Shown here in pieces: positions 1,447 through 55,962 of a stretch of 64,000 nucleotides of DNA. Made by a program: the position numbers and the translations under genes. This DNA is from a virus (taxonomy: Duplodnaviria; Caudoviricetes). The stretch lies in the IMG/VR virus record IMGVR_UViG_3300030330_005136, positions 1 through 64,000 of that record. The stretch is one strand, 5' to 3'. The notes beneath the pieces are model-generated. The model was not told the DNA's origin, did no database searches, and saw only the letters and a list, made by a program, of their open reading frames with translations. Numbering within the stretch: the stretch's first letter is position 1; each line of letters starts with the position of its first letter.

Positions 1447-1785
1447 ATGAGACCCCTAAGAGTATTGTTTACATCAATACTAATGTTAACCACACTACTA
1501 CAAGCGAATGGCAAGAGTAGACACCCAATAGCAAAGAAAACCTTTGAACTCACCTATCAGGATATCAGATCCGAGATCATGGATCATCTACCTGAACGAA
1601 TGTTCATAGTGGACTTCGATATCACCGAGGAGGGCAAGGTTGAGAATGCTAGGATTGTCGATGATGTAAACATCGATCTATCCAATACTGTTATATCAAA
1701 AGTTATGGCTCTAAAGTTTAAACCAGCATTACAGAATGGTCGACCAGTAAGAGTGAGATACAAGCTTCCGATTGTATTTAAGTAA
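1447..1785 (+). CDS. exported or membrane-anchored TonB C-terminal domain protein
   Basis: N-terminal signal-like segment, then FDITEEGKVENARIV...KFKPALQNGRPVRVRYKLPIVF, typical of TonB_C; no Pro-rich spacer. Confidence 0.8.
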   Translation: MRPLRVLFTSILMLTTLLQANGKSRHPIAKKTFELTYQDIRSEIMDHLPERMFIVDFDITEEGKVENARIVDDVNIDLSNTVISKVMALKFKPALQNGRPVRVRYKLPIVFK

Positions 1786-1827: not shown

Positions 1828-2199
1828 ATGAGACCATTACTATTACCTATTCTTTCGGCATTCCTCTTCTCTCAGGATTCAACCGACTTCGAACTTGACC
1901 TCGATGCCATGTGGGAAAATACCGTATGGATTGAAATCCAGGATGTGGTAGATGTTAATTATGAAGTAGAGAGGGTCACTGCTGTCGCTGGAGTCAGAGG
2001 AGCAGAAGCAGAGGATGAGGCTTTAAGTCTTCTATACTACCGAAAGTCTATGAAGGGATTGTCAGAACTACAGTTACGTAAGGCGCTAGGTAAACTGCTT
2101 AACAAGCGCTCCATGTTACGAAAACAAGGTACAGAGGTTCCGGCAGAAATCGATAAGTATATACTAGTGCTTCGAAACAAGTTAAAAATATCAAAGTAA
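1828..2199 (+). CDS. hypothetical exported protein
   Basis: ORF 123 aa with signal-peptide-like N-terminus MRPLLLPILSAFLFSQ. Confidence 0.7.
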   Translation: MRPLLLPILSAFLFSQDSTDFELDLDAMWENTVWIEIQDVVDVNYEVERVTAVAGVRGAEAEDEALSLLYYRKSMKGLSELQLRKALGKLLNKRSMLRKQGTEVPAEIDKYILVLRNKLKISK

Positions 2200-39910: not shown

Positions 39911-40234
39911 ATGGATAAACCACAGACAGCAAGAAGTTATAGGGCAACCGTGTTAGACGATAATGCGGTAGTATCTATCAACCTAAAATGGTTGGCTCAG
40001 ATAGGTGCATTGTTGGCGATGTTAGTCTATGGTTATTGGAATATGGTCACACGCATAACTAATTTAGAACAAGAGGTGGCTGATGCTGATGCTCAAATAG
40101 CAGAATTGGTAGAGAAGCATATTAAAGAAGAAGAAGTTAGATATACTGAAATGGAAAAACAGCTTAAATTTTATGAAAAGGAATTCAATATAAATCCTCT
40201 GAGCTGGGGTAGAAAGAAAAAGAAAAACAGGTAA
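39911..40234 (+). CDS. single-TM coiled-coil protein (lysis-module candidate)
   Basis: TM WLAQIGALLAMLVYGYW, coiled coil, basic tail. Confidence 0.6.
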   Translation: MDKPQTARSYRATVLDDNAVVSINLKWLAQIGALLAMLVYGYWNMVTRITNLEQEVADADAQIAELVEKHIKEEEVRYTEMEKQLKFYEKEFNINPLSWGRKKKKNR

Positions 40235-40248
40235 CACCCACAAACAAA

Positions 40249-40278
40249 TTGTTACAGTCATCGTATACTTTTGTTACA
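40249..40278. promoter_or_regulatory. candidate enhancer-binding-protein site (TTGTTACA x2, 22-bp period)
   Basis: exact 8-mer direct repeat at 40249 and 40271, upstream of the sigma54 box. Confidence 0.4.
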
Positions 40279-40309: not shown

Positions 40310-40325
40310 TGGTACAGTTCTTGTA
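40310..40325 (+). promoter_or_regulatory. sigma54-type (-24/-12) promoter of the pilin cassette
   Basis: TGGTACAGTTCTTGTA vs consensus TGGCACG-N4-TTGCW; GG-N10-GT spacing exact; SD and ATG follow at a suitable distance. Confidence 0.7.
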
Positions 40326-40358: not shown

Positions 40359-40985
40359 ATGTTCAAATCAATAATACGATATCTAAAGAGCACTAATGGT
40401 AACTCATTAGCTGAATTTGCAGTAACAACTGCTATGATGGCTACATTGGCTACCACTGCTGCACCTAAATTTTCTGGTGTTGGTGAAGGTGCTAAGGAAA
40501 AGAAAACATTAGCTGATATTGACAAGATTGTCAAATCTGCTAACAACTTTTATAACGCTAAAGTTACCGAAGAAGGTCGTGGAAGATTTCCAGGACAGAC
40601 AAAGTATGATGCTGCTGTAGGTGGATATGCTTCTGATTCTTTACTACTTGCTGGTGTAGAAAACTTTACAACTTTTAGCTCTAATGAAGGACAAAATTGG
40701 GCTTCTGTATTCGGAACAACTACAGATGGTGCTAAAGCACCAGTTGGTCATAATATATCTACAGATGAAGATGATGATAAAGATGGATCATATGATGTAT
40801 ATACAGGTGCTGAGGAGTTCTTAAATGAGTTTGGTGGTAACCCAATCAAGACACCATTTCAGGATGGTCACTACATCTATGCGGTAATCGCTGGTGGTGG
40901 AAGTGGTTCATCTTCTTATTCACCCATTCTTTATGTTGCTGACTTAGAAAATCCAAGCAACTTTAAAAAGAAATTACAACCATAG
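40359..40985 (+). CDS. type IV pilin/pseudopilin-like protein 1 (atypical Asn at +1)
   Basis: basic leader MFKSIIRYLKSTNG|NSLAEFAVTTAMMATLATTAAP with Gly-1, Glu+5 and Pro+22. Confidence 0.7.
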   Translation: MFKSIIRYLKSTNGNSLAEFAVTTAMMATLATTAAPKFSGVGEGAKEKKTLADIDKIVKSANNFYNAKVTEEGRGRFPGQTKYDAAVGGYASDSLLLAGVENFTTFSSNEGQNWASVFGTTTDGAKAPVGHNISTDEDDDKDGSYDVYTGAEEFLNEFGGNPIKTPFQDGHYIYAVIAGGGSGSSSYSPILYVADLENPSNFKKKLQP

Positions 40986-40995
40986 GAGAACTAAA

Positions 40996-41421
40996 ATGTT
41001 GAACCAGAAAGGATTTACATTAATCGAACTTATCATGGTTACAATTATTTTAGGTATCTTAGCTGCTGTTGCCATACCGAGATATATGACAACAGTTACA
41101 AAAGCCCATGAGGCTGCTGAAGATGCGGTAATTAACTCTATAAAAGCTGGTTTAGAAACTTATGCTGTCGAACAACTAATGGATAATGGTAGGAAATCAT
41201 GGCCTACAAATCCATTCGATGCTCTAGACACCAAACCTGCTGGACACACCACAGACACAGATGATGCTGATGTTGATGGAGAGTGGACATACAATACCAC
41301 TAGTAAGAAGATCACACATCAGAGAAGTGATAACACACGTGTGGCTTGGCAATACGATGAGGGAACACAATCAGGCGACAATGCTGCTGTGGGAACTCTA
41401 GGATCAAGAGCTAGTCTGTAG
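40996..41421 (+). CDS. type IV pilin/pseudopilin 2
   Basis: canonical N-methylation motif MLNQKG|FTLIELIMVTIILGILAAVAIPRY. Confidence 0.93.
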   Translation: MLNQKGFTLIELIMVTIILGILAAVAIPRYMTTVTKAHEAAEDAVINSIKAGLETYAVEQLMDNGRKSWPTNPFDALDTKPAGHTTDTDDADVDGEWTYNTTSKKITHQRSDNTRVAWQYDEGTQSGDNAAVGTLGSRASL

Positions 41422-41430
41422 GAGTTAATA

Positions 41431-41859
41431 ATGAAAAACTCTAACGGATTTACTCTGATAGAGTTGGTTGTAACCATCGCTTTAGTGGGGATATTGCTGG
41501 GAACGGCTATCCCCACTTTTCATAGGGTGGTTGCTGAAACTCAATCCCAAGTAAACATATCAAACATGGAAATAATAAAAGACACATTTCTACAGTATTA
41601 TTACGACAATCACATGAGTGGTGATCCACATTTTCCACAAGTTCCATCTGATAGTTTGTTGAATACTACATATCGTCAGACGACCTTGGGTGATGGTAGA
41701 ACGCCTGATATGTTGTTCAGTGGAGACTTACCTTACAACAGCAATAAGAAACCATTTTTATACTATTGGGATGATGATTCCTTAACAAAAAGAATTGTTG
41801 TAAAGGATAATGATTTAGATAGCCCATCATATAATCAAAAGGTAATTGGTGAAATATAA
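41431..41859 (+). CDS. type IV pilin/pseudopilin 3
   Basis: canonical motif MKNSNG|FTLIELVVTIALVGILLGTAIPTF. Confidence 0.92.
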   Translation: MKNSNGFTLIELVVTIALVGILLGTAIPTFHRVVAETQSQVNISNMEIIKDTFLQYYYDNHMSGDPHFPQVPSDSLLNTTYRQTTLGDGRTPDMLFSGDLPYNSNKKPFLYYWDDDSLTKRIVVKDNDLDSPSYNQKVIGEI

Positions 41860-41862
41860 CAC

Positions 41863-41894
41863 TTGACTTTTATATATTTTTTCTGTATATTTAT
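41863..41894 (+). promoter_or_regulatory. overlapping sigma70 promoter and ATATTTAT late motif
   Basis: TTGACT(41863)-N17-TATATT(41886); ATATTTAT at 41887-41894. Confidence 0.7.
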
Positions 41895-41898
41895 GAGT

Positions 41899-42291
41899 AT
41901 GAAACTAATGGATATATTATTAGAAAGGGTGGATTTTCATCAAATAGCAACCGAGTTAGTGAAGAAAGCTGGGTTAAATTCAAAAGTAAAATTTACAAAA
42001 ACAGGTAAAAACAAAGCAGATTATAATGTTGATCAAGACATAATCAACATTAAACCAACATCAAGATTTAAAGATTTTTTAGTTACAGTATTTCATGAAA
42101 TAGATCATGCAAAAGATGCTCAACGGATGGGTAAGGAAAAGTATAAGAAAGCATACGAGATGGAAATGAACAAGGCAGTTCAAAGAGGCGAAGACCCACA
42201 TGATGATAATTTTTATGAAAAGAAAGCAGAAAAGTTTGGTCGTAAGATGGCAAAAGATTACCTGAAGATAAACAGGAAAAATATTTATTGA
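41899..42291 (+). CDS. zincin-like HExxH metallopeptidase-fold protein
   Basis: FHEIDH plus downstream NFYEKKA; start moved to ATG 41899. Confidence 0.65.
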   Translation: MKLMDILLERVDFHQIATELVKKAGLNSKVKFTKTGKNKADYNVDQDIINIKPTSRFKDFLVTVFHEIDHAKDAQRMGKEKYKKAYEMEMNKAVQRGEDPHDDNFYEKKAEKFGRKMAKDYLKINRKNIY

Positions 42292-46938: not shown

Positions 46939-49900
46939 ATGCCAATACAAGATAATTATACACAGCGACTAGGACTGGCAGAACTAGATGTTTTTTTAGA
47001 TACGCCGGACAATAGTAATAGATATTTTAATATCATCAACTTACCACAAATTGCTGGGTATGGTAAATATTCCTTTCAAATATCCTATAACGATCCTGAT
47101 GATACTGATTTATTATTAAAACAAGGTTCTGGTATTTTATTCGAATTTGTTGATGCCAATGGTGAAACTATATTTTCAGAATTATCAGATATACCAGATG
47201 CCAGTGGTGCCGCATCGGGTTATTTTTGGATAAAAAAAGATCCACTCTGGCTAGCTGGCGAAATAGCTGATGGGCCGGCTACTTTATATATTGTAGGGGA
47301 ACTAGACAATGTACCTGAAGAGTTCGAAGGTACATATAATGTTAGGACTGCCTTTACTTTCGATATAAGAAAATCACAACCAAATATTTCGAGAATTTTA
47401 TTTCATGATGTTCCGGCATTAGAGCAAAGTTCTAGTATTAATGGTCAGATTCAAGAATTTGATAGAGGTAGTTCAACTTTTGCCAGAGGATATATTGAAG
47501 TCAGTGCCTCTCATATGGAAACTCATGGTGGTCAGGTAAACTTCATTGAGTTATCTTATCTAGAATCTGGTAGTAGGACAGAAGAATTTACACCATTGGC
47601 AGAGTATCCGTTACGTGGTTCGTCATCAAGATATGAATTGGATGATACTGGTTCTATTGATGGATTGAATCCGATATCACATGTATTCAGAATGCCTGTC
47701 CCTCGTGATTTTCGTAGAGACAGTGAAGTAAAATTTAAATTAAAATTTTTAGATGCTAATAAATCACCAGCAAAATATTATGATGAGATTAAAAATGATC
47801 AAGTTATAGAAATAACATCTTCTTTTATAACAGTAAGTGGAACGCCTTTTATTATTGAAAATGAAGATAATTTACTCAAGGGTTCGATGTTTACTGGTCA
47901 AGCTGTTGGCAAGGGATTTGAAACATCCGGTAAAAGCAGTGCATTTATGAAAACAGTAGATTACACTGGTTTCAAATCCGCTAGTCTAGGTATAGGTAGT
48001 CCTGGTGTAATGTTCTTTAGTGGTTCTGTGTTGACATCGAGTGGTGACAATTATCAAGGGGTTGGATTAGAATTATTTGCTAACACAGAAAGTTTTTTAA
48101 GATTTAGATCAGACCCATCAGAATTAGATATCAAAACAAAAGCATTTTTTGTAGGTTCAGAAACAACTCAATTTATCAGTGCATCTGGTGGAACAATAGA
48201 GATAAGTTCTAGTAATTTTCATTTAGAACCTAGTGGTGATGTCACCATGACCGGAACAATTGAAGCCGCTGATGGTAAAATAGGTGGGTTTCATATATCA
48301 GAGTCTAGAATAAATTCTGAAAATGAAAAAATAATATTTAAATCAAGTGGACAGATATCAGCTTCTTCATTGTTGTTAGCATCGGGTTCATTTATTGTAG
48401 ATCCTGATAATCTTTCAAGATTTGGTCAAGATGGTTTTCAAAGTTTTGTCATGGCTGAAAATACTGGTGTAATCATACAGACAAGTAATTTTAATCTTAA
48501 CACTGCTAGATTTATTATCAGTTCAAGTGATGTTGGTGTCATGGCTGTTGGTTCAACACCGCCTGTAGCTCATAACAGTGGAACTGGCTTTTATGTAGAT
48601 GGTGATGGTAATTTTCTTGTAGGAAAATCCACAGGTCCTAGATTACAATTCGATGGTTTTCAAACTACAATAAGTTCATCTAATTTCTTTCTTGGTTCAG
48701 ATGCTCAATTTGTAAGTGGTAGTAACGGGAATATTGAGATAAGTTCTAGTAATTTTCATCTAGATGCTGCTGGAAATGTTATAATGGCTGGAACTATAAC
48801 AGCAAATGCTGGAACCATAGGAGGGTTTAATATAACTAATAATGCCTTATCCTCTGATAATTTTTTCATCAGTGGTGCCGCCACAGGTGCTGAATTATTT
48901 ATATCATCATCTGGTTTTTCTGTAGATGCTCAAGGTGTGGTTAGTGCGTCTGATTTATCATTACAAGGTGGAGATGTTGGTGGTTTGTCTGTTGCTGAGG
49001 GAACTGTATCTGTTGGTGAAATACTAAAACTAAAAGATAGTGGACAGATTACAGGTTCACAAGTTTTGTTTACTGGTGGAAAAATCAGTGGTTCTGCTTT
49101 AGATATAATTGTTCCTAAATTCTTTTTAGGTAGTGAAGAACAATTTGTAAGTGGTTCAAACGGTAATATTGAAATAAGTAGTTCTGATTTTCATCTAGAT
49201 AAAGATGGAAGTGTAAACATGTCAGGTACTATTACAGCAACTGCTGGAGCAATTGGTGGATTTGGTATTAGCTCAAATGCTATAAGTAGTTCAAATAATA
49301 ATTTAATACTAAAAGATAGTGGTCAAATAACTGGTTCAACAGCATTATTTACTGGTGGAAAAATTGCTGGATGGACTATAAGTGGTACAACTTTAGTTGG
49401 AAATAATGCGACACTTGATGGTGCTGGTTCTGCTTTATTTAAATCCGATGCGGGTCCTGATACAGATAATAGTGCTCCTTTTGATGAAGCACGAAATGAA
49501 TTTTACATAGATTTTTCTCCATCCGATCAAAGTAACACACGAAACTTTTTTGTAAAGTTTGGTCCTAATTTTATGGTGGATAGTGATGGTATATTGATAG
49601 CCAGTGGTGCTACTTTTGCTGGAACTATAACTGCCAGTGCAGGTTTGATTGGGGGATTTGTAACAGACAGTTCATCTTTTCATGATAATAGCAATAATAT
49701 TTTTATAAGTGGTAGTCCAAAGATAGGTGGAAATCATCATCCATCTTTTATGTTTATATCAAGCTCAAACTTTAATGTAAAACAAAGTGGGGATATAACA
49801 GGATCATCTGCTCTATTTGATGGTATTATAAATGTTACAGGAACAGGTCAGATTGCTGGATTTGGTATAACCCAAACTGCTATTTCAAGCTCAAACGATA

Positions 49901-52900
49901 AACTGATATTAAAATCGAGTGGTCAGATTACTGGTTCTGATGTTTTATTTAGTGGCGGTAAGATTGGTGGTTTTACTTTAGGAACAAATACATTTACAGC
50001 AACAAATTTTGAACTTGATCCGAGTGGAAAGAGGATAACACTTGGTAGTGGAAATAGTATTTTTATTGCTGATGGTGACGAAGGAATACAATTAGGTCAT
50101 GCTACATTTGCTGATGCTCCTTTTAGTGTTACGACTGCAGGTGTGTTAAAGGCTACAAGTGGAACGATTGGTGGATTTACATTAAGTACAAACGAATTAA
50201 CTGCTACTAACTTTGAATTAAATCCAAGTCAAAAAAGAATTACATTAGGAAGTAGTAATGATATCTTTATTGCTGATGGTGATGAAGGTATTCAGTTAGG
50301 TCATGCTACATTTAATAGTGCTCCATTTAGTGTTACTAAAGCTGGATTCTTACATGCTGCCGCTGGTAGGATAGGTGGTTTTGGTATAAGTTCAAATTCG
50401 ATTACCAGTTCTAATGATAATTTAATATTAAAGGATAGTGGACAAATAACAGGATCTACAGTTCTGTTTACTGGTGGAAAGATAGGTGGTTTTACAATCG
50501 ATGCTGATGAAATTAAATCTACAAATCTATTATTAGATTCTAATAATGAAAAGATAACTGTTGGTAGTGCAAACGCCATTACAATACAAGGTGGTGGCAC
50601 AGATAATTTTATTGTGATGGGAAGTAAAACTGCTTTTGCCCAAACATCCACTGCTGGTGTGATATTGGGTATGGATAATAATGTCCCATCCTTTGATCTA
50701 ACTAGAAATTCTACAAATTATGTTAGGTTTGATACATCGACTGGTGTTGATATTAAAACCGATACATTCAAATTAGATACAGCAACATTAGACATAGATT
50801 CATCAACAAGTAGAATACAAGTTGTGGATGGTTCTTCAAATGAGGTTGTAAGATTAGGTGAAATATCCGACAGTGCTTCAGATTTATTTGGTTTAAAGGT
50901 TTACGATGGAAGTGGCACTGCTGATGCCAACACATTAGTAAAACTTGGTGGTGAAGGTAATACCATTGGTGGTTGGACAATTACAAATGATCAGATAAGA
51001 TCCCTAAATCTTGTTATACATTCAAGTGGTAGATTAGAAACTGCTGATTTCGCCAGTGGTGTTAAGGGGTGGAGGATATCTTCTGAAGGTAATGGTGAAG
51101 CTGAATTTGAAAATGCTACAATTCGTGGAACTCTTTCAACTGCCGTATTTGAAAAAGAAACTGTAAACGCCGTAGGTGGTCAGTTGTATGTTGCCAACTC
51201 AACAGCACTTACAGGATCAGGTCAGATATCTGCAAGTTTTGACACAATGAGTGTCGTTAATGTAAGCGGATTTGCACAAGGTGAAATATTAAGTTTAAAG
51301 AAAGTAAGTGATACGGGTTTTACCACAGAATATGTTTTAGTCAATAGTTCTTCTAGAGACGATAAATCAAGTGATACAAATTTTTCTGGTAAATTAAATG
51401 TGACTCGTGGATACGGATCAGGTGTTACTGGCGATAGTGGTTCGTTAGGTGGTTCTCCTAACAATGCTCAATCCTATGAACCTGGTCAAGTAATAGTATC
51501 AACCGGTAAAGTTGGAACTGGTTACATAAGATTAAATGCTAATCCAAATGATCAAGCCACACCTTTCATGGATATTGTAGAAAGAACTGGTAGTGGAATA
51601 TATGATATAGAACTAAAAACAAGGGTGGGAGATCTTAGTGGTTTAAGTAGTGGTTTACTATTTGGAGAATCAAATCCAGGATTTGGTATCTTTACTGGTA
51701 ATGGTTTTTTCAGTGGGGGAATAACTGCTACAACTGGTTCATTTACAGGTGCTGTTCACATTAACACCTCTGCTTCTGAGATAATGAAACTCGGTACGAA
51801 TGTTAGTGGAACTGATGATGGTATCTTTGTAAATAACAATAACTTTCTTTTCACTGATGGTCGGTTTAAGACAGGTAATGCAACCAACTTTATTTCACAT
51901 GATGGTGCTGGAGCAGTAGAAATATCATCACAAAATTTTACTCTAAAGGGTGGAACAAAATTATTAATGACTTCTGAAAGTTTAGCCTTTGATACTTCAA
52001 ATGCTTCAACTGCTACGAGAACTGCTGGAACTGGTGTTTTTATGGATGTCGATGGTAATTTTAGAGTTGGTAATGCCAGTGGTAATAGACTTACATTTGC
52101 AGGCTCATCATTAGAATTAGTAACTACTGATCTTAATATAGATACTTCTACATTTGATGTATCTACTGATAATGGTGGAAAGATTGCTATGGGAGCTACA
52201 CCACCAACAAGTATAACCAGTGGAACTGGTATTTTTATGAGTGGTAGTGGTGAGTTCTTAGCTGGAAATGCCAGTGGAAATCACATAAAATTTGATGGAA
52301 CGAATGTTCAAGTTGCCGGTCAAATAACAATTTCTGCTGGTTCTACATCAGAAGTTGATTTTGGTGCTGGTGCAGCTGCTTCTGCAAGTGCTGCTTCAGC
52401 AAGTGCTGCCACTGCTCAATCCTCTGCAAGTGCAGCACAAACTTTAGCAAGTGAAGCATCGGCATCGGCTGCCGTAGCGTCTAGTTCAGCAGCGACTGCG
52501 ACTGCTGCTGCCTCGACTGCTCAATCTGCTATTGATACTATGGAAACTCAAGTTGTATTAACCAACGAGGGGATGTCATTAAGAGCTGTTAATGATGCAG
52601 GAAACCCCAATTTAAATGGACAGGATGTGGTTCAGGTTGGGACAACTACAAAGTTTTTTGATGGTGTGGATGATACCGATGCCAATCAAAAACTTAGATT
52701 AAACACCGATGGTGTGTTTGCTTTTGCCAACACCACACAATCATTTGCGAGATTTTTTAGTGAGGGTGTTCAGATAGTATCGGGTGGAGTTGAAAGAGCT
52801 AAATTTGCTGGTACAACCACAATAGGTAATACTGCTTTTGAACATGTTGAGATAACAAGTGCTTCTTTAAAACTAAAAGGTGGGGAAAACGGAAGCATAA

Positions 52901-55900
52901 CTAGATTATCCATGGATGCTGATGGTATGCAAATTGGTTCAGTATCAAATGGTATAACTCTAAATGCAAGTGGTGACGCTACATTTAATGGTGCGATTAC
53001 GATATCACCAAGTGATTTACCTGATGGAACTGTTAGTGGTTCAGCTCAGTTAGCCGATGCTATCAGTGGTTCTGCAAATCAAATATCAGCATCTGCTGCT
53101 GCTCAAGCAACACAAGTAGTCTTAGACTCAAACGGAATGTCTCTGAAGAGTCAAGACACAAGTAAGACATTAGCTAGTTTTGGAACAACGGTTACAATTG
53201 GTGAAAATGCTGATGATAAATCAAGAGTTTTTATAGATAATGATTCTGTTGATCTTATCGTAGATTCAGGTGGAACAGATACGACTTTTGCTTCATTTGG
53301 TGCTACAACTACTGTTGGTAATGCTAGTGCTGAACATGTAAGTATAGATAGTGATTCTGTTGATATCATACAAGATGCTAACAATAAAGCCGTGGTAAAT
53401 GCTAGTGGATTGACAATTACACAAGGGGGTAACAATGTTGCGACTTTTGGTTCAACTGCTAGAATGGGACAGACATCAGCAGAACATATTTTAGTTGATT
53501 CAACAGGATTATTATTAAAAGATAACACAGATGTTATTGGCAAATTTGTTCAAGGTGGTGCTACACTAGGTAAAACCGGTGGGGCTCATATTTCTGCTTC
53601 TACAACTGATGTAAGTATTATTAGAAATAATAATAATAAAGCAATTGTTGATGCTGATGGTTTAACTATAACACAAAGTGGAGCTGGAGTTGCTAAATTT
53701 GCTTCTACAACAACTATAGGAGAGACTTCTACTGAACATGTAGAAATTACATCTACATCATTTAAATTAAAAGATGGTTCAACAGATAGATTGATTATGA
53801 ATTCTGATGGTATTAGTATTGGAAATCAATTCTCTGTAGATTCGGATGGTGATGCCACATTCGGTGGAACACTTACTATCGGCAATATAGTTTCGAGTTC
53901 TGCTCAACTTGCTGATGCTATTAGTGGTTCATCAAATGCTTTCTCTGCTTCAGCTGCGGCTAGTATAGCTCAGACAGCAGTCGATTCTGCTTCAGTTGCT
54001 TCTGCTGTACAAATAACCAGTGATGGATTAAATATTCTAAGAGCTGATAATGGAAGTGAACTTGCTTCTTATGGTGCGACCACAACAATAGGAAGTACAA
54101 GTGCAGAACATATATCAATTAGTAGTGATGCCATTGAAATAAAAACCAATGCAAATACCACAGTATTATCTGCTTCATCTGCTGGATTAGATATGGCTGG
54201 TACGATTAAAGCCAGTGGTGGTACAATCGGTGGTTTTAATATTGGAACTGATTTAGATTCTAGTGCAGGAACATTAAAACTCAAAGGTGCTACAGGACAA
54301 ATAACTGCTTCAGATGCTCAAATAACAGGTAAGATAATTGCTACTACTGGTACAATTGGTGGTTTCAATATTGGAAGTGATTTGGGATCAAGTGGTGGAA
54401 CATTAAATTTAAAAGGTAGTTCTGGTCAAATCACAGGTTCTAATGTATTATTCAGTGGTGGGGATATTGGTGGATTCATACTCTCGGACGACAAATTTAT
54501 AGGTCAGATATCAAATGCTAAAACATTCACTATCGACAGTGGTCAAAGCGCTGATTTACAGTATGATGGTAATGATGCCTCAGGAATAATATATGGACCC
54601 AAGAGTTCTCATGATCTAGGTACTGGTGTGAATTTTACTGGTAGTGCTTGGGTTATGTCTGATGCAGGTGGAGCAAATGAAGGTATATTTTTTAGAGCAG
54701 GTGTCAAAGATACATTTGTTAAATTATCAACCACCGGTGGTGAGGACAATGGTGTATTAGCAATAAGTTCATCAAATTTTTCGATAGACAACAGTGGTAA
54801 TGTTACGATGGCTGGAACTGTTACTGCCGATGGTGGTTCTATAGGTGGATTTACCATCAATGGTAGTCAATTAACAGGAAGTTCAGGTGCGATTCTTGCT
54901 ACTGCTGCAAGTGGTGATAGAGCCGTATTTGATGGAACAAATAATGACTTGAGATTTTATGAATCTGGTAAAGGTGGTACATCAACATCATTGAAATTAG
55001 GAAAATTCGGACAGTTAACATTTGGAACTGCTGGTAGTGTTGTAAATCAATATGGTATAATTCTAAGTGGTTCTAGTTTTAATGTGAGTAAATTTAGTGT
55101 AACTAATCCTGATGTAACTGAGAACTTAGATTTTACTGGTGTTCCGAATACTTTTCAAACCAATATTTCTAATATAAGTTCAACACTTGATATGGGATCA
55201 GCTAGAGACGTGTTCAGAGGAAGAGCTGGAGCCGTCTTCACTGCAAAAACTGGTCTAGCATCAGACCTAACCACAACAGGTTTGCTTGCTGGTATGATGG
55301 GACAAATAGAAGATGACAATTTACGTTGGGACATGTCTGCTGGTGGTTTTTTCGTAAGTTCTGAAGATAGAGCTCTAATAGATGCTGATGAAGGTGGTGG
55401 TGTTGGAGATGGAAGTTGGGCTCTGGCAACAGTTGGTAGAGTCATGATGACTGGTAGTAATGGTTCTGGTTTCAGTGCTGCTTCCATGCCACCGACATTA
55501 ACAGTTGGTGGACCTGGTGGTAAAAGTATTCAAGCCGATGGATTAGTGGTTATGAAAGCAGATGCAACTGTTGATGGAGCATTATCAGTTGGTGGAACTA
55601 TAAGTGGAAGTCTGATTCGTAGTTCTGGCGATGTTGTTGCTTTCCATTCATCAGATAAGAGACTAAAAGATAATATAAGAACAATAGAAGAACCTATATA
55701 TAAATTAAGACAACTAAAGGGTGTTGAATATGAGTGGAATAATAAACAAGATACATATCCAAGTGGTTCATTAGATAGTGGTATTATAGCACAGGATGTA
55801 CAAAAAGTTCTACCACAATTAGTAAAGGAAAAAGAAGATGGGTATCTCGGTGTTCGACATGATAGATTAGTCGGTCTATTAGTTGAAGCCATAAAAGACC

Positions 55901-55962
55901 AACAAGATCAAATAGATGAGATGAAAGAACAAATCAAGGAGTTGAAAGATGGCAGTTCCTAG
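46939..55962 (+). CDS. long tail fibre (3007 aa) with C-terminal intramolecular chaperone (peptidase S74)
   Basis: repeated G.IGGF.I / SGQITGS units; C-terminal SSDKRLKDNI...GIIAQDVQKVLPQLV...LLVEAIK coiled coil. Confidence 0.9.
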   Translation: MPIQDNYTQRLGLAELDVFLDTPDNSNRYFNIINLPQIAGYGKYSFQISYNDPDDTDLLLKQGSGILFEFVDANGETIFSELSDIPDASGAASGYFWIKKDPLWLAGEIADGPATLYIVGELDNVPEEFEGTYNVRTAFTFDIRKSQPNISRILFHDVPALEQSSSINGQIQEFDRGSSTFARGYIEVSASHMETHGGQVNFIELSYLESGSRTEEFTPLAEYPLRGSSSRYELDDTGSIDGLNPISHVFRMPVPRDFRRDSEVKFKLKFLDANKSPAKYYDEIKNDQVIEITSSFITVSGTPFIIENEDNLLKGSMFTGQAVGKGFETSGKSSAFMKTVDYTGFKSASLGIGSPGVMFFSGSVLTSSGDNYQGVGLELFANTESFLRFRSDPSELDIKTKAFFVGSETTQFISASGGTIEISSSNFHLEPSGDVTMTGTIEAADGKIGGFHISESRINSENEKIIFKSSGQISASSLLLASGSFIVDPDNLSRFGQDGFQSFVMAENTGVIIQTSNFNLNTARFIISSSDVGVMAVGSTPPVAHNSGTGFYVDGDGNFLVGKSTGPRLQFDGFQTTISSSNFFLGSDAQFVSGSNGNIEISSSNFHLDAAGNVIMAGTITANAGTIGGFNITNNALSSDNFFISGAATGAELFISSSGFSVDAQGVVSASDLSLQGGDVGGLSVAEGTVSVGEILKLKDSGQITGSQVLFTGGKISGSALDIIVPKFFLGSEEQFVSGSNGNIEISSSDFHLDKDGSVNMSGTITATAGAIGGFGISSNAISSSNNNLILKDSGQITGSTALFTGGKIAGWTISGTTLVGNNATLDGAGSALFKSDAGPDTDNSAPFDEARNEFYIDFSPSDQSNTRNFFVKFGPNFMVDSDGILIASGATFAGTITASAGLIGGFVTDSSSFHDNSNNIFISGSPKIGGNHHPSFMFISSSNFNVKQSGDITGSSALFDGIINVTGTGQIAGFGITQTAISSSNDKLILKSSGQITGSDVLFSGGKIGGFTLGTNTFTATNFELDPSGKRITLGSGNSIFIADGDEGIQLGHATFADAPFSVTTAGVLKATSGTIGGFTLSTNELTATNFELNPSQKRITLGSSNDIFIADGDEGIQLGHATFNSAPFSVTKAGFLHAAAGRIGGFGISSNSITSSNDNLILKDSGQITGSTVLFTGGKIGGFTIDADEIKSTNLLLDSNNEKITVGSANAITIQGGGTDNFIVMGSKTAFAQTSTAGVILGMDNNVPSFDLTRNSTNYVRFDTSTGVDIKTDTFKLDTATLDIDSSTSRIQVVDGSSNEVVRLGEISDSASDLFGLKVYDGSGTADANTLVKLGGEGNTIGGWTITNDQIRSLNLVIHSSGRLETADFASGVKGWRISSEGNGEAEFENATIRGTLSTAVFEKETVNAVGGQLYVANSTALTGSGQISASFDTMSVVNVSGFAQGEILSLKKVSDTGFTTEYVLVNSSSRDDKSSDTNFSGKLNVTRGYGSGVTGDSGSLGGSPNNAQSYEPGQVIVSTGKVGTGYIRLNANPNDQATPFMDIVERTGSGIYDIELKTRVGDLSGLSSGLLFGESNPGFGIFTGNGFFSGGITATTGSFTGAVHINTSASEIMKLGTNVSGTDDGIFVNNNNFLFTDGRFKTGNATNFISHDGAGAVEISSQNFTLKGGTKLLMTSESLAFDTSNASTATRTAGTGVFMDVDGNFRVGNASGNRLTFAGSSLELVTTDLNIDTSTFDVSTDNGGKIAMGATPPTSITSGTGIFMSGSGEFLAGNASGNHIKFDGTNVQVAGQITISAGSTSEVDFGAGAAASASAASASAATAQSSASAAQTLASEASASAAVASSSAATATAAASTAQSAIDTMETQVVLTNEGMSLRAVNDAGNPNLNGQDVVQVGTTTKFFDGVDDTDANQKLRLNTDGVFAFANTTQSFARFFSEGVQIVSGGVERAKFAGTTTIGNTAFEHVEITSASLKLKGGENGSITRLSMDADGMQIGSVSNGITLNASGDATFNGAITISPSDLPDGTVSGSAQLADAISGSANQISASAAAQATQVVLDSNGMSLKSQDTSKTLASFGTTVTIGENADDKSRVFIDNDSVDLIVDSGGTDTTFASFGATTTVGNASAEHVSIDSDSVDIIQDANNKAVVNASGLTITQGGNNVATFGSTARMGQTSAEHILVDSTGLLLKDNTDVIGKFVQGGATLGKTGGAHISASTTDVSIIRNNNNKAIVDADGLTITQSGAGVAKFASTTTIGETSTEHVEITSTSFKLKDGSTDRLIMNSDGISIGNQFSVDSDGDATFGGTLTIGNIVSSSAQLADAISGSSNAFSASAAASIAQTAVDSASVASAVQITSDGLNILRADNGSELASYGATTTIGSTSAEHISISSDAIEIKTNANTTVLSASSAGLDMAGTIKASGGTIGGFNIGTDLDSSAGTLKLKGATGQITASDAQITGKIIATTGTIGGFNIGSDLGSSGGTLNLKGSSGQITGSNVLFSGGDIGGFILSDDKFIGQISNAKTFTIDSGQSADLQYDGNDASGIIYGPKSSHDLGTGVNFTGSAWVMSDAGGANEGIFFRAGVKDTFVKLSTTGGEDNGVLAISSSNFSIDNSGNVTMAGTVTADGGSIGGFTINGSQLTGSSGAILATAASGDRAVFDGTNNDLRFYESGKGGTSTSLKLGKFGQLTFGTAGSVVNQYGIILSGSSFNVSKFSVTNPDVTENLDFTGVPNTFQTNISNISSTLDMGSARDVFRGRAGAVFTAKTGLASDLTTTGLLAGMMGQIEDDNLRWDMSAGGFFVSSEDRALIDADEGGGVGDGSWALATVGRVMMTGSNGSGFSAASMPPTLTVGGPGGKSIQADGLVVMKADATVDGALSVGGTISGSLIRSSGDVVAFHSSDKRLKDNIRTIEEPIYKLRQLKGVEYEWNNKQDTYPSGSLDSGIIAQDVQKVLPQLVKEKEDGYLGVRHDRLVGLLVEAIKDQQDQIDEMKEQIKELKDGSS
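49963..50370 (+). repeat. coding tandem duplication, 204 bp / 68 aa x2
   Basis: IGGFTL..N..TATNFEL.PS.KRITLGS...IFIADGDEGIQLGHATF..APFSVT units at 49963 and 50167. Confidence 0.9.
52363..52530 (+). repeat. Ala/Ser low-complexity stretch (lambda Stf-like)
   Basis: GAGAAASASAASASAATAQSSASAAQ...ATAAASTAQSA. Confidence 0.8.

Follow-up and report, generated by a model that had tools for sequence, protein, structure and literature searches.

What would a bacteriophage gain from type IV pilin genes when no machinery for assembling a pilus is found beside them? This question is raised by a short segment of the IMG/VR virus record IMGVR_UViG_3300030330_005136 (Duplodnaviria; Caudoviricetes), which comprises 73,132 bases at a CheckV completeness of ~40%; its first 64,000 nucleotides (hereafter, the window) were analysed in this study. 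Three adjacent genes at positions 40359-41859 of the window were previously noted, from the DNA alone, to encode proteins with class III signal peptides. That original prediction held that the phage swaps or poisons subunits of the host pilus/T2SS, and that the trio was a good candidate for an undescribed system. The comparisons presented below indicate that the cassette was copied from the head of a type IV pilus subunit operon of Marinimicrobia/SAR406 bacteria.

Three prepilin genes in the window

The cassette consists of three intact, co-directional open reading frames (ORFs) on the plus strand, namely PIL1 (ORF1; 40359-40985; 208 aa), PIL2 (ORF2; 40996-41421; 141 aa) and PIL3 (ORF3; 41431-41859; 142 aa), separated by intergenic gaps of 10 and 9 nt. 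A Shine-Dalgarno box, AGGAG(A), is located 6-8 nt upstream of each ORF, in agreement with the strong ribosome-binding sites noted previously. PIL2 and PIL3 are canonical prepilins with the motif G|FTLIE (N-terminal starts, ...KGFTLIEL and ...NGFTLIEL, respectively). Both exceeded the curated cut-off of 21.2 for Pfam N_methyl PF07963 (32.1 bits for ORF2 and 34.1 bits for ORF3) and the cut-off of 16.3 for TIGR02532 (32.4 and 27.2 bits, respectively). The N-terminal region of PIL2 resembles those of major pilins and of GspG, and its matches to major pilins in the PDB covered the N-terminal helix alone. PIL3 is the member of the trio most diverged from its host ortholog. Its AlphaFold model (pLDDT 88) contains a helix at residues 9-62, and when this model was compared with the PDB by using VIA-align, all of the top 18 matches were pilins or pseudopilins, with modest Z values of 5.1-7.5.

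PIL1 is an atypical prepilin (G|NSLAEF; N-terminal start, …NG|NSLAEFAVTTAMMATLATTAAP…) with a variable central region, and no Pfam, PHROG or NCBIfam model matched it. Nonetheless, several results mark it as a probable divergent pilin. Gly14 and Glu19 (positions -1 and +5) were conserved in at least 90% of 26 family members, and alignment of the ORF1 profile with the ORF2 family by hhalign gave a probability of 89% (E 2.2e-6, 77 columns). A profile search of the PDB returned weak matches to Geopilin and MshA (E 0.03-0.4). Moreover, the AlphaFold model of ORF1 (pLDDT 78.8) predicts a 57-residue N-terminal helix (residues 16-72) on a small sheet, and type IV pilins or pseudopilins accounted for 12 of its 13 top VIA-align matches in the PDB (Z 4.5-5.6, also modest); a Foldseek search of the PDB with the same model gave nothing at E ≤ 0.001. 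For both ORF1 and ORF3, it is thus the consistency of the structural matches that argues for a pilin fold in the models. The ORF1 family comprises 308 representative clusters, and ORF1 alone has ~3,700 metagenomic relatives.

More specific assignments were also considered. ORF2 was rejected as GspG, as its TIGR01710 match (48.3 bits) covered residues 5-85 only, a resemblance of the N-terminal half, and fell below the cut-off of 88.85; ORF3 scored 28.6 bits against the same cut-off. Assignment to the FimU/GspH family (PF12019) was likewise rejected, with a GspH-domain match absent from all three proteins, and no PADLOC model fitted any cassette protein.

Occurrence of the cassette among related phages

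The window contains genes for a T4-type baseplate wedge protein, tail-fibre proteins (one of 3,007 aa), a gp55-like late sigma factor, a RuvC-like resolvase, a primase and an SbcCD-like nuclease, and on these grounds the virus was classed as a large myovirus. Judged on the baseplate protein, its nearest deposited relatives are distant (Microcystis phage Mel-JY01, 34%; Flavobacterium phage immuto, 30%). No integrase was seen in the window. Upstream of the cassette are genes for two small membrane/coiled-coil proteins with weak spanin/holin matches, preceded by tail-fibre-region genes; the resolvase, primase and nuclease genes lie downstream. The cassette therefore occupies the place originally described for it, between lysis-like genes and replication genes.

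The exact ORF1 protein was found on contigs from many samples, and six independent Tara and JGI assemblies showed identical flanks on both sides of the cassette. Diverged cassettes were found in 12 viral contigs through ORF2 and in 76 more through ORF1, always between phage genes, and host pilus machinery (PilBCD) was found in none of these 12 and 76 contigs. The cassette genes are clearly host-derived, and their G+C content (38.1%) is slightly over that of the large phage genes (34.0%), as might be seen if host DNA had been joined to a phage contig through mis-assembly or contamination. However, the same cassette and flanks recurred in at least six independent assemblies from different samples, diverged versions were flanked on either side by phage genes in over 80 viral contigs, and the phage copies grouped in clades of their own. 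The suspicion of a chimera, which the original prediction had asked to be checked, was thereby dispelled, and we regard an artefact as exceedingly improbable.

When 50,697 deposited phage genomes were searched by tblastn, ORF1 had no match and ORF2 had N-terminal-helix matches only; among these deposited genomes, the cassette is carried by no cultured relative. The cassette travels as one unit and is found in differing neighbourhoods, for example beside the gene for a gp55-like sigma factor or an AAA+ ATPase in related phages. Most relatives also contain a fourth prepilin gene, a paralog of ORF2, followed directly by homologs of an exported 123-aa protein and an exported TonB_C-domain protein. 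The 123-aa protein gene, a member of the module in most relatives, directly follows the pilin genes in ~70 of ~90 related phage loci examined. In the window, it is located at 1828-2199 (plus strand), 38 kb from the pilins, and its product has a signal peptide; searches gave it no Pfam family and no ESM Atlas lead. The stand-alone TonB_C protein (1447-1785, plus strand; 112 aa; PF03544 TonB_C, E 1.2e-10) may be a further member of the module, because its gene comes after that of the 123-aa protein in many related phage modules; no counterpart was seen within the regions of the host locus examined. In the window, these two genes (1447-2199), 38-39 kb from the cassette, stand beside an AAA+ ATPase gene (58-1197) in an order reversed relative to that of the relatives, and the fourth pilin is missing from the window's record. 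The pilin module has thus been split and rearranged in the window's lineage. A contig in a public metagenome-assembled genome (MAG) labelled 'Dehalococcoidia', which looks mis-binned or mislabelled, is also a fragment of this phage group.

Relationship of the cassette to a Marinimicrobia pilus locus

One genome per prokaryotic species was scanned with a 12-row ORF1 alignment. ORF1 relatives were found in 46 loci; 20 of these were labelled Marinimicrobia/Neomarinimicrobiota (NCBI phylum Fidelibacterota), 20 were from MAGs labelled no further than 'uncultured bacterium', and the remaining 6 carried other labels, each once, mostly on short contigs. Five genomes examined further belonged to one GTDB phylum, and about 30 of the 401 genomes sampled from that phylum carried the ORF1 family. 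Because their matches to the window were limited to the pilin genes, the host loci were taken to be cellular DNA.

About 30 Marinimicrobia MAG and single-cell loci share one gene order. A response regulator gene is followed by genes for PilD (A24 peptidase), a PilB-type ATPase with an MshEN domain, a sigma-54 activator and PilC, and then by one to five tandem ORF1-like genes, an ORF2-like gene, an ORF3-like gene, three more prepilin genes and a gene for a LamG-domain protein. The fourth pilin-like host gene is GspH-like (PF12019, E 6.9e-4, just under the cut-off) and is not carried by the phage. Further downstream, the locus continues with genes for a PilO-like protein and for a secretin, the latter 14-25 kb past the ATPase gene, and with genes for a CHASE2 cyclase, an FG-GAP protein of 1,426 aa and a TPR/outer-membrane protein. 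The last gene of this pilus supra-operon is a homolog of the exported 123-aa phage protein; in all five host genomes searched, such a homolog, 47-62% identical, was present ~10 kb beyond the secretin on the contig bearing the pilus locus. The order PIL1-PIL2-PIL3 is that of the host, and therefore the phage cassette corresponds to three consecutive genes of the host operon, namely the last of the ORF1 copies and the two that come after it.

When compared with the nearest host locus, ORF1, ORF2 and ORF3 were 73%, 72% and 36% identical, respectively, with ORF3 reaching 43% in other host loci; over the host orthologs, identities ranged from 50 to 72% for PIL2 and from 32 to 43% for PIL3. In a maximum-likelihood tree of PIL1, the phage copies fell inside the clade of host 'last' copies, and the window clade had as its sister group three host loci, of which two came from genomes labelled Marinimicrobia (SH-aLRT 89). 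The best tree requires two to three switches between host and phage; a single phage clade was not rejected (AU p = 0.197). By its nesting in the tree, its synteny with the host operon and its phage flanks, the cassette is a set of host-derived auxiliary genes. The comparison with host pilin loci, proposed earlier as a route to the host, thus points to Marinimicrobia/SAR406 as the probable host.

The host loci had several further features. Tandem ORF1-type genes numbered two to five per host genome (L025, L027, L029, L037 and L038; e.g., L037:7206-10732), most with a sigma-54 box of their own; some neighbouring copies were identical, and others were less than 50% identical. This arrangement looks like a pilin-variation array. 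An unusually large array, of 8-15 tandem ORF2-type GFTLIE genes after PilC, was seen in MAGs B_MB92 and MED-G177 of the same phylum (L046:9956-20116 and L049:9956-17626, on contigs of 583 kb and 220 kb, respectively). Past the secretin, locus L153 (G008:C12:36000-52586) encodes a CHASE2-adenylate/guanylate cyclase, a 1,426-aa FG-GAP/Ig protein, a 911-aa TPR protein with a FadL-like N-terminus and the small exported protein common to the phages, a combination for which we know of no named counterpart. In addition, several public MAGs (L038, L068, L030 and L060), the 'Dehalococcoidia' one among them, look mis-binned or mislabelled, with a bacterial PilB/PilC-pilin locus on a 'Methanobacteriota archaeon' contig and the labels 'Balneolaceae' and 'Gammaproteobacteria' on Marinimicrobia-type loci.

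A sigma-54-type control region upstream of the cassette

A sigma-54-type -24/-12 box, TGGTAC-N5-TTGT, is located at 40310-40324 (plus strand), 35 nt upstream of the ORF1 start. The pattern TGGYAY-N5-TTGY had only three occurrences on both strands of the 64-kb window. The sequence TGGTAY-N5-TTGT was present at the same place in 9 of 12 related phage loci, representing both phage clades, and nearly all host ORF1 copies were preceded by TGGCAC-N5-TTGC, several of them having TTGT. When the phage and host intergenic regions were aligned, the sigma-54 box was the sole conserved island. Neither an excess of sigma-70-like promoters nor a terminator was found around the cassette.

A candidate upstream activator region was also found at 40231-40278 (plus strand), with GTAACA at 40231-40236 and direct TGTTACA repeats at 40250-40256 and 40272-40278, 22 nt apart. 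In the 165 nt upstream of the sigma-54 box, TGTTACA/TGTAACA was the commonest 7-mer not made up of A/T alone; it occurred in 51 of the 55 distinct sequences from phages and in 41 of the 66 from hosts, compared with ~3-4% expected by composition according to our own estimate. The host locus encodes a protein with Sigma54_activat and HTH_8 domains between PilB and PilC. On the basis of the TGTTACA elements and this sigma-54 activator, host-style regulation of the phage genes is predicted, with the activator presumably binding at the TGTTACA elements.

In Pseudomonas aeruginosa and Myxococcus xanthus, RpoN (sigma-54) and PilS-PilR control the major pilin gene. The arrangement described here is similar in that a predicted -24/-12 promoter stands before the first of the pilin genes, that the host locus encodes both a response regulator and a sigma-54 activator, and that there is a candidate repeated activator site. 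It differs in that the predicted promoter is on a phage genome and has TTGT as its -12 element, and in that the sensor kinase and activator are not on the phage (no search was made for the activator).

The window cassette follows tail-fibre-region genes and two small spanin/holin-like ORFs, a position that might be taken to mean that the pilins were recruited to a phage-specific role apart from the host pilus, such as one in the virion, in envelope crossing or in lysis. However, the neighbourhoods of the cassette are quite different in related phages, and the predicted promoter is of the host sigma-54 type. Also, the assembly of tailed virions takes place in the cytoplasm, but proteins with class III signal peptides are sent to the inner membrane and PilD. 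Given these signals and the changing genomic context, a role in the virion is unlikely, and we assign very little probability to phage-specific recruitment of any kind.

Assembly machinery and conservation of assembly features

Genes for a prepilin peptidase (PilD), a T2SSE/PilB-type ATPase, a T2SSF platform/PilC protein and a secretin were sought in the 73-kb record and four related records, and none was found. The T2SSE matches in phage records were rejected, as they corresponded to the P-loop of the MoxR/CobS-like AAA+ protein encoded at 58-1197. PilD was also not found in five further related records (106-132 kb, 56-72% complete), and a search of five phage records for a gene with an MshEN domain gave no match. 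The claim that the cassette comes without assembly genes has thus held up, including in that part of the source record beyond the window; because all of the searched records are incomplete, the machinery is described here as not found rather than as absent.

All pilin copies were under purifying selection, with dN/dS values among the phage copies of 0.27 for ORF1, 0.13 for ORF2, 0.19 for ORF3 and 0.15 for the fourth pilin. Conservation spanned the entire globular domains; the one exception was a variable stretch in the middle of ORF1, such as an exposed loop would be expected to show. GFTLIE was invariant in PIL2, as were Gly-1, Thr+2 and Glu+5 in PIL3. The first 30 residues of ORF2, the part that packs in the filament core and contacts the machine, were almost identical between phage and host, and alignment of the phage and host ORF3 proteins revealed common motifs along their full length.

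These data bear on whether the phage swaps host subunits or poisons the pilus. In a dominant-negative mode, phage pilins would jam PilD, PilC or the growing filament, and pili (or a type II secretion pseudopilus) would be lost and the receptor removed. The truncated PilA-like proteins of some Pseudomonas phages have been proposed to act in this way (PMC12952977); moreover, the Asn at position +1 of PIL1 is unusual, and PIL3 is strongly diverged from the host form. However, the unusual +1 residue of PIL1 and its Ala/Thr-rich helix are common to the host's own copies, and Gly-1, Glu+5 and complete globular domains are conserved in all copies. A single small blocker would suffice, but the phages maintain three to four subunits at full length. 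With every assembly feature kept, we rate poisoning below assembly-competent replacement and give it only a slim chance. Of the two actions originally proposed, it is the supply of subunits to the host machine that is favoured by the orthology with the host operon, the processing motifs, the purifying selection and the sigma-54 box.

Proposed role of the phage pilins

We consider it reasonably probable, on the sequence comparisons taken as a whole, that the cassette is host-derived, that the host machine builds a filament with phage-specified subunits, and that the most likely benefit is receptor replacement. In such a scheme, host sigma-54 RNA polymerase, driven by a PilR-like activator from the host pilus locus, would transcribe the cassette, and host PilD would cleave the three prepilins. 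The host PilB/PilC/secretin machine would then polymerise the phage pilins, alone or mixed with host subunits. An infected cell would thus carry a filament with a phage-specified exposed surface, and phages that bind pili, including the phage's own progeny, would be blocked from adsorbing to a cell already infected (superinfection exclusion). The transcription, cleavage and polymerisation steps are inferred from homology. Receptor replacement is favoured because the tandem, separately promoted pilin variants of the host suggest diversifying pressure on the filament surface, because the phage copies clearly differ from the host copies, and because P-FimU has that demonstrated role.

P-FimU denotes the FimU-like proteins of P. 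aeruginosa F10-like prophages, which are incorporated into the pilus and prevent the adsorption of phages that bind its tip (Sztanko et al., Cell Rep 2026, PMC12952977); P-PilA denotes PilA-like genes of Xylella prophages and of four groups of virulent phages (PMC12952977). As in those systems, the cassette provides phage homologs of host type IV pilus subunits, comes without assembly machinery, and is expected to deliver its products to the host pilus. Unlike them, it amounts to a stretch of operon copied together with a host sigma-54 control region, with three genes, or four in most relatives, and an exported accessory. It differs further from P-FimU in lacking a GspH domain match, in having its probable host in an uncultured marine phylum, and in being known from sequence alone. 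In the haloarchaeal pleolipovirus provirus SNJ2, PilA1 and PilA2 rely on the machinery of the host and become the dominant surface filaments (Xiang et al., Cell Rep 2025, PMC12426801), and the Asgard archaeal virus BaiyanV2 encodes a host-like pilin (PMC13700489). These viruses resemble the present one in that viral pilins derived from the host chromosome use host secretion machinery and that the pilin genes come without it; those are archaeal pilins of temperate or other virus types, whereas the present system is bacterial and resides in a large T4-like myovirus. Other phage proteins inhibit type IV pili without being subunits; those cited in PMC12426801 and bioRxiv 10.1101/2024.03.05.583538 include Tip of D3112 (targeting PilB), PfsE of Pf (targeting PilC) and Zip (acting via PilZ). 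The likely outcome, changed pilus-dependent adsorption to a cell already occupied, is the same; but those proteins are small non-pilin blockers of the machine, whereas the cassette supplies apparently assembly-competent subunits.

With phage-borne pilins in print (P-FimU, P-PilA, SNJ2 PilA1/2 and BaiyanV2), the premise that phages do not supply pilin subunits is outdated, and the original prediction of an undescribed system could not be upheld (PMC12952977, PMC12426801, PMC13700489). PHROGs already includes a 'pilin' family, phrog_3433. Literature searches on Marinimicrobia together with pilin and virus, and on phage-encoded pilin, found nothing on this system. The present case differs in that part of an operon, with three to four subunits and an accessory gene, has been captured, that the sigma-54 control region was retained, that the carrier is a marine myovirus of lytic type, and that the probable host belongs to an uncultured phylum.

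A nearly equally plausible benefit is that the genes sustain host function, in parallel to cyanophage psbA: fresh subunits would keep the pilus of the infected cell working through a long infection, even as the expression of host genes falls, in particle or glycan attachment, uptake or suspension, and its exposed surface need not matter. As an overall account, we hold this to be possible rather than likely. Three to four subunits and the accessory exported protein, all traceable to a single host supra-operon, have stayed together and are under purifying selection, and such a set suits a complete filament better than it suits one changed epitope. A role in adhesion or nutrition is suggested by the host locus, which encodes LamG and FG-GAP proteins and is located beside fucosidase, GH109 and sugar-symporter genes; host-style regulation is also kept. 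However, identity between the phage copies and the nearest host copies sampled is only 36-73%, and function-sustaining genes such as psbA are typically far closer to host copies than this. In addition, the other three host minor pilins are not on the phage, pili are costly, and the link to nutrients is only conjectural.

Several observations weigh against a host-built filament with phage subunits as proposed above. T4-like phages usually redirect host transcription, and the availability of sigma-54 holoenzyme would then be uncertain. The -12 element of the phage is TTGT (with GG kept at -24), whereas the consensus is TTGC, although TTGT is likewise found in several of the host copies. Completeness of the phage records ranges from 19 to 72%, and machinery genes may therefore lie elsewhere. 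The assignment of the host rests solely on the host-derived cassette genes: the phage baseplate protein had a strong match (39% identity) in just one of the 401 genomes of the phylum, with weak partial matches in a second, and the phage tmRNA was without a DNA match in five Marinimicrobia genomes, a result that we consider uninformative. Finally, the nearest sampled host pilins are at most 73% identical (at most 43% for PIL3), and either the host lineage is unsampled or the genes have moved beyond the functional range of the host.

Other features of the window

The gene directly after the cassette (41863-42291) has a weak zincin-like metallopeptidase match (MPTase-PolyVal, 22.9 bits, under the cut-off) and also a weak match to the anti-restriction family phrog_7245. 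Its position after the pilin module is kept in several relatives (L080, L082, L086, L116, L128 and L147). The gene for the 3,007-aa tail-fibre protein (46939-55962), which has a C-terminal Peptidase_S74 (intramolecular chaperone) domain, directly follows the SbcCD-like nuclease gene; structural and replication genes are thus interleaved. A full-length tmRNA was identified by Rfam at 7794-8225 (plus strand; RF00023, 99.4 bits; gathering score, 47). ARAGORN reported no tRNA and no tmRNA over the window; the tag region of a phage tmRNA overlooked by that program may be unusual.

Implications for Marinimicrobia and their phages

To our knowledge, SAR406/Marinimicrobia has no cultured pelagic representative, and no described phages of this group were found in the literature searched. 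The cassette provides a gene-level link between SAR406/Marinimicrobia and a very abundant uncultured group of large marine myoviruses. It also draws attention to a Marinimicrobia pilus system that had gone unremarked, in which pilin variants stand in tandem and are promoted individually, a pattern expected under pressure from phages or grazers. Subunit replacement, so far seen with single pilins of Pseudomonas and Xylella phages and in an archaeal provirus, would be extended to operon segments in lytic-type ocean phages, and a phage gene set apparently wired to the sigma-54 enhancer system of its host is an unusual and testable arrangement.

A more elaborate proposal, which we advance tentatively and believe to be doubtful on present comparisons, is that a multi-subunit module (a major-type pilin, two to three further pilins, the exported accessory and perhaps the TonB_C protein) is under host sigma-54/PilR-like sensory control, and that an infected SAR406 cell builds a distinct, phage-specified filament on cue. 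If this were true, the attachment of one of the commonest deep-ocean bacteria to particles or to other cells could be changed during infection, carbon flux could be affected, and the filament could act as a receptor switch between competing phages.

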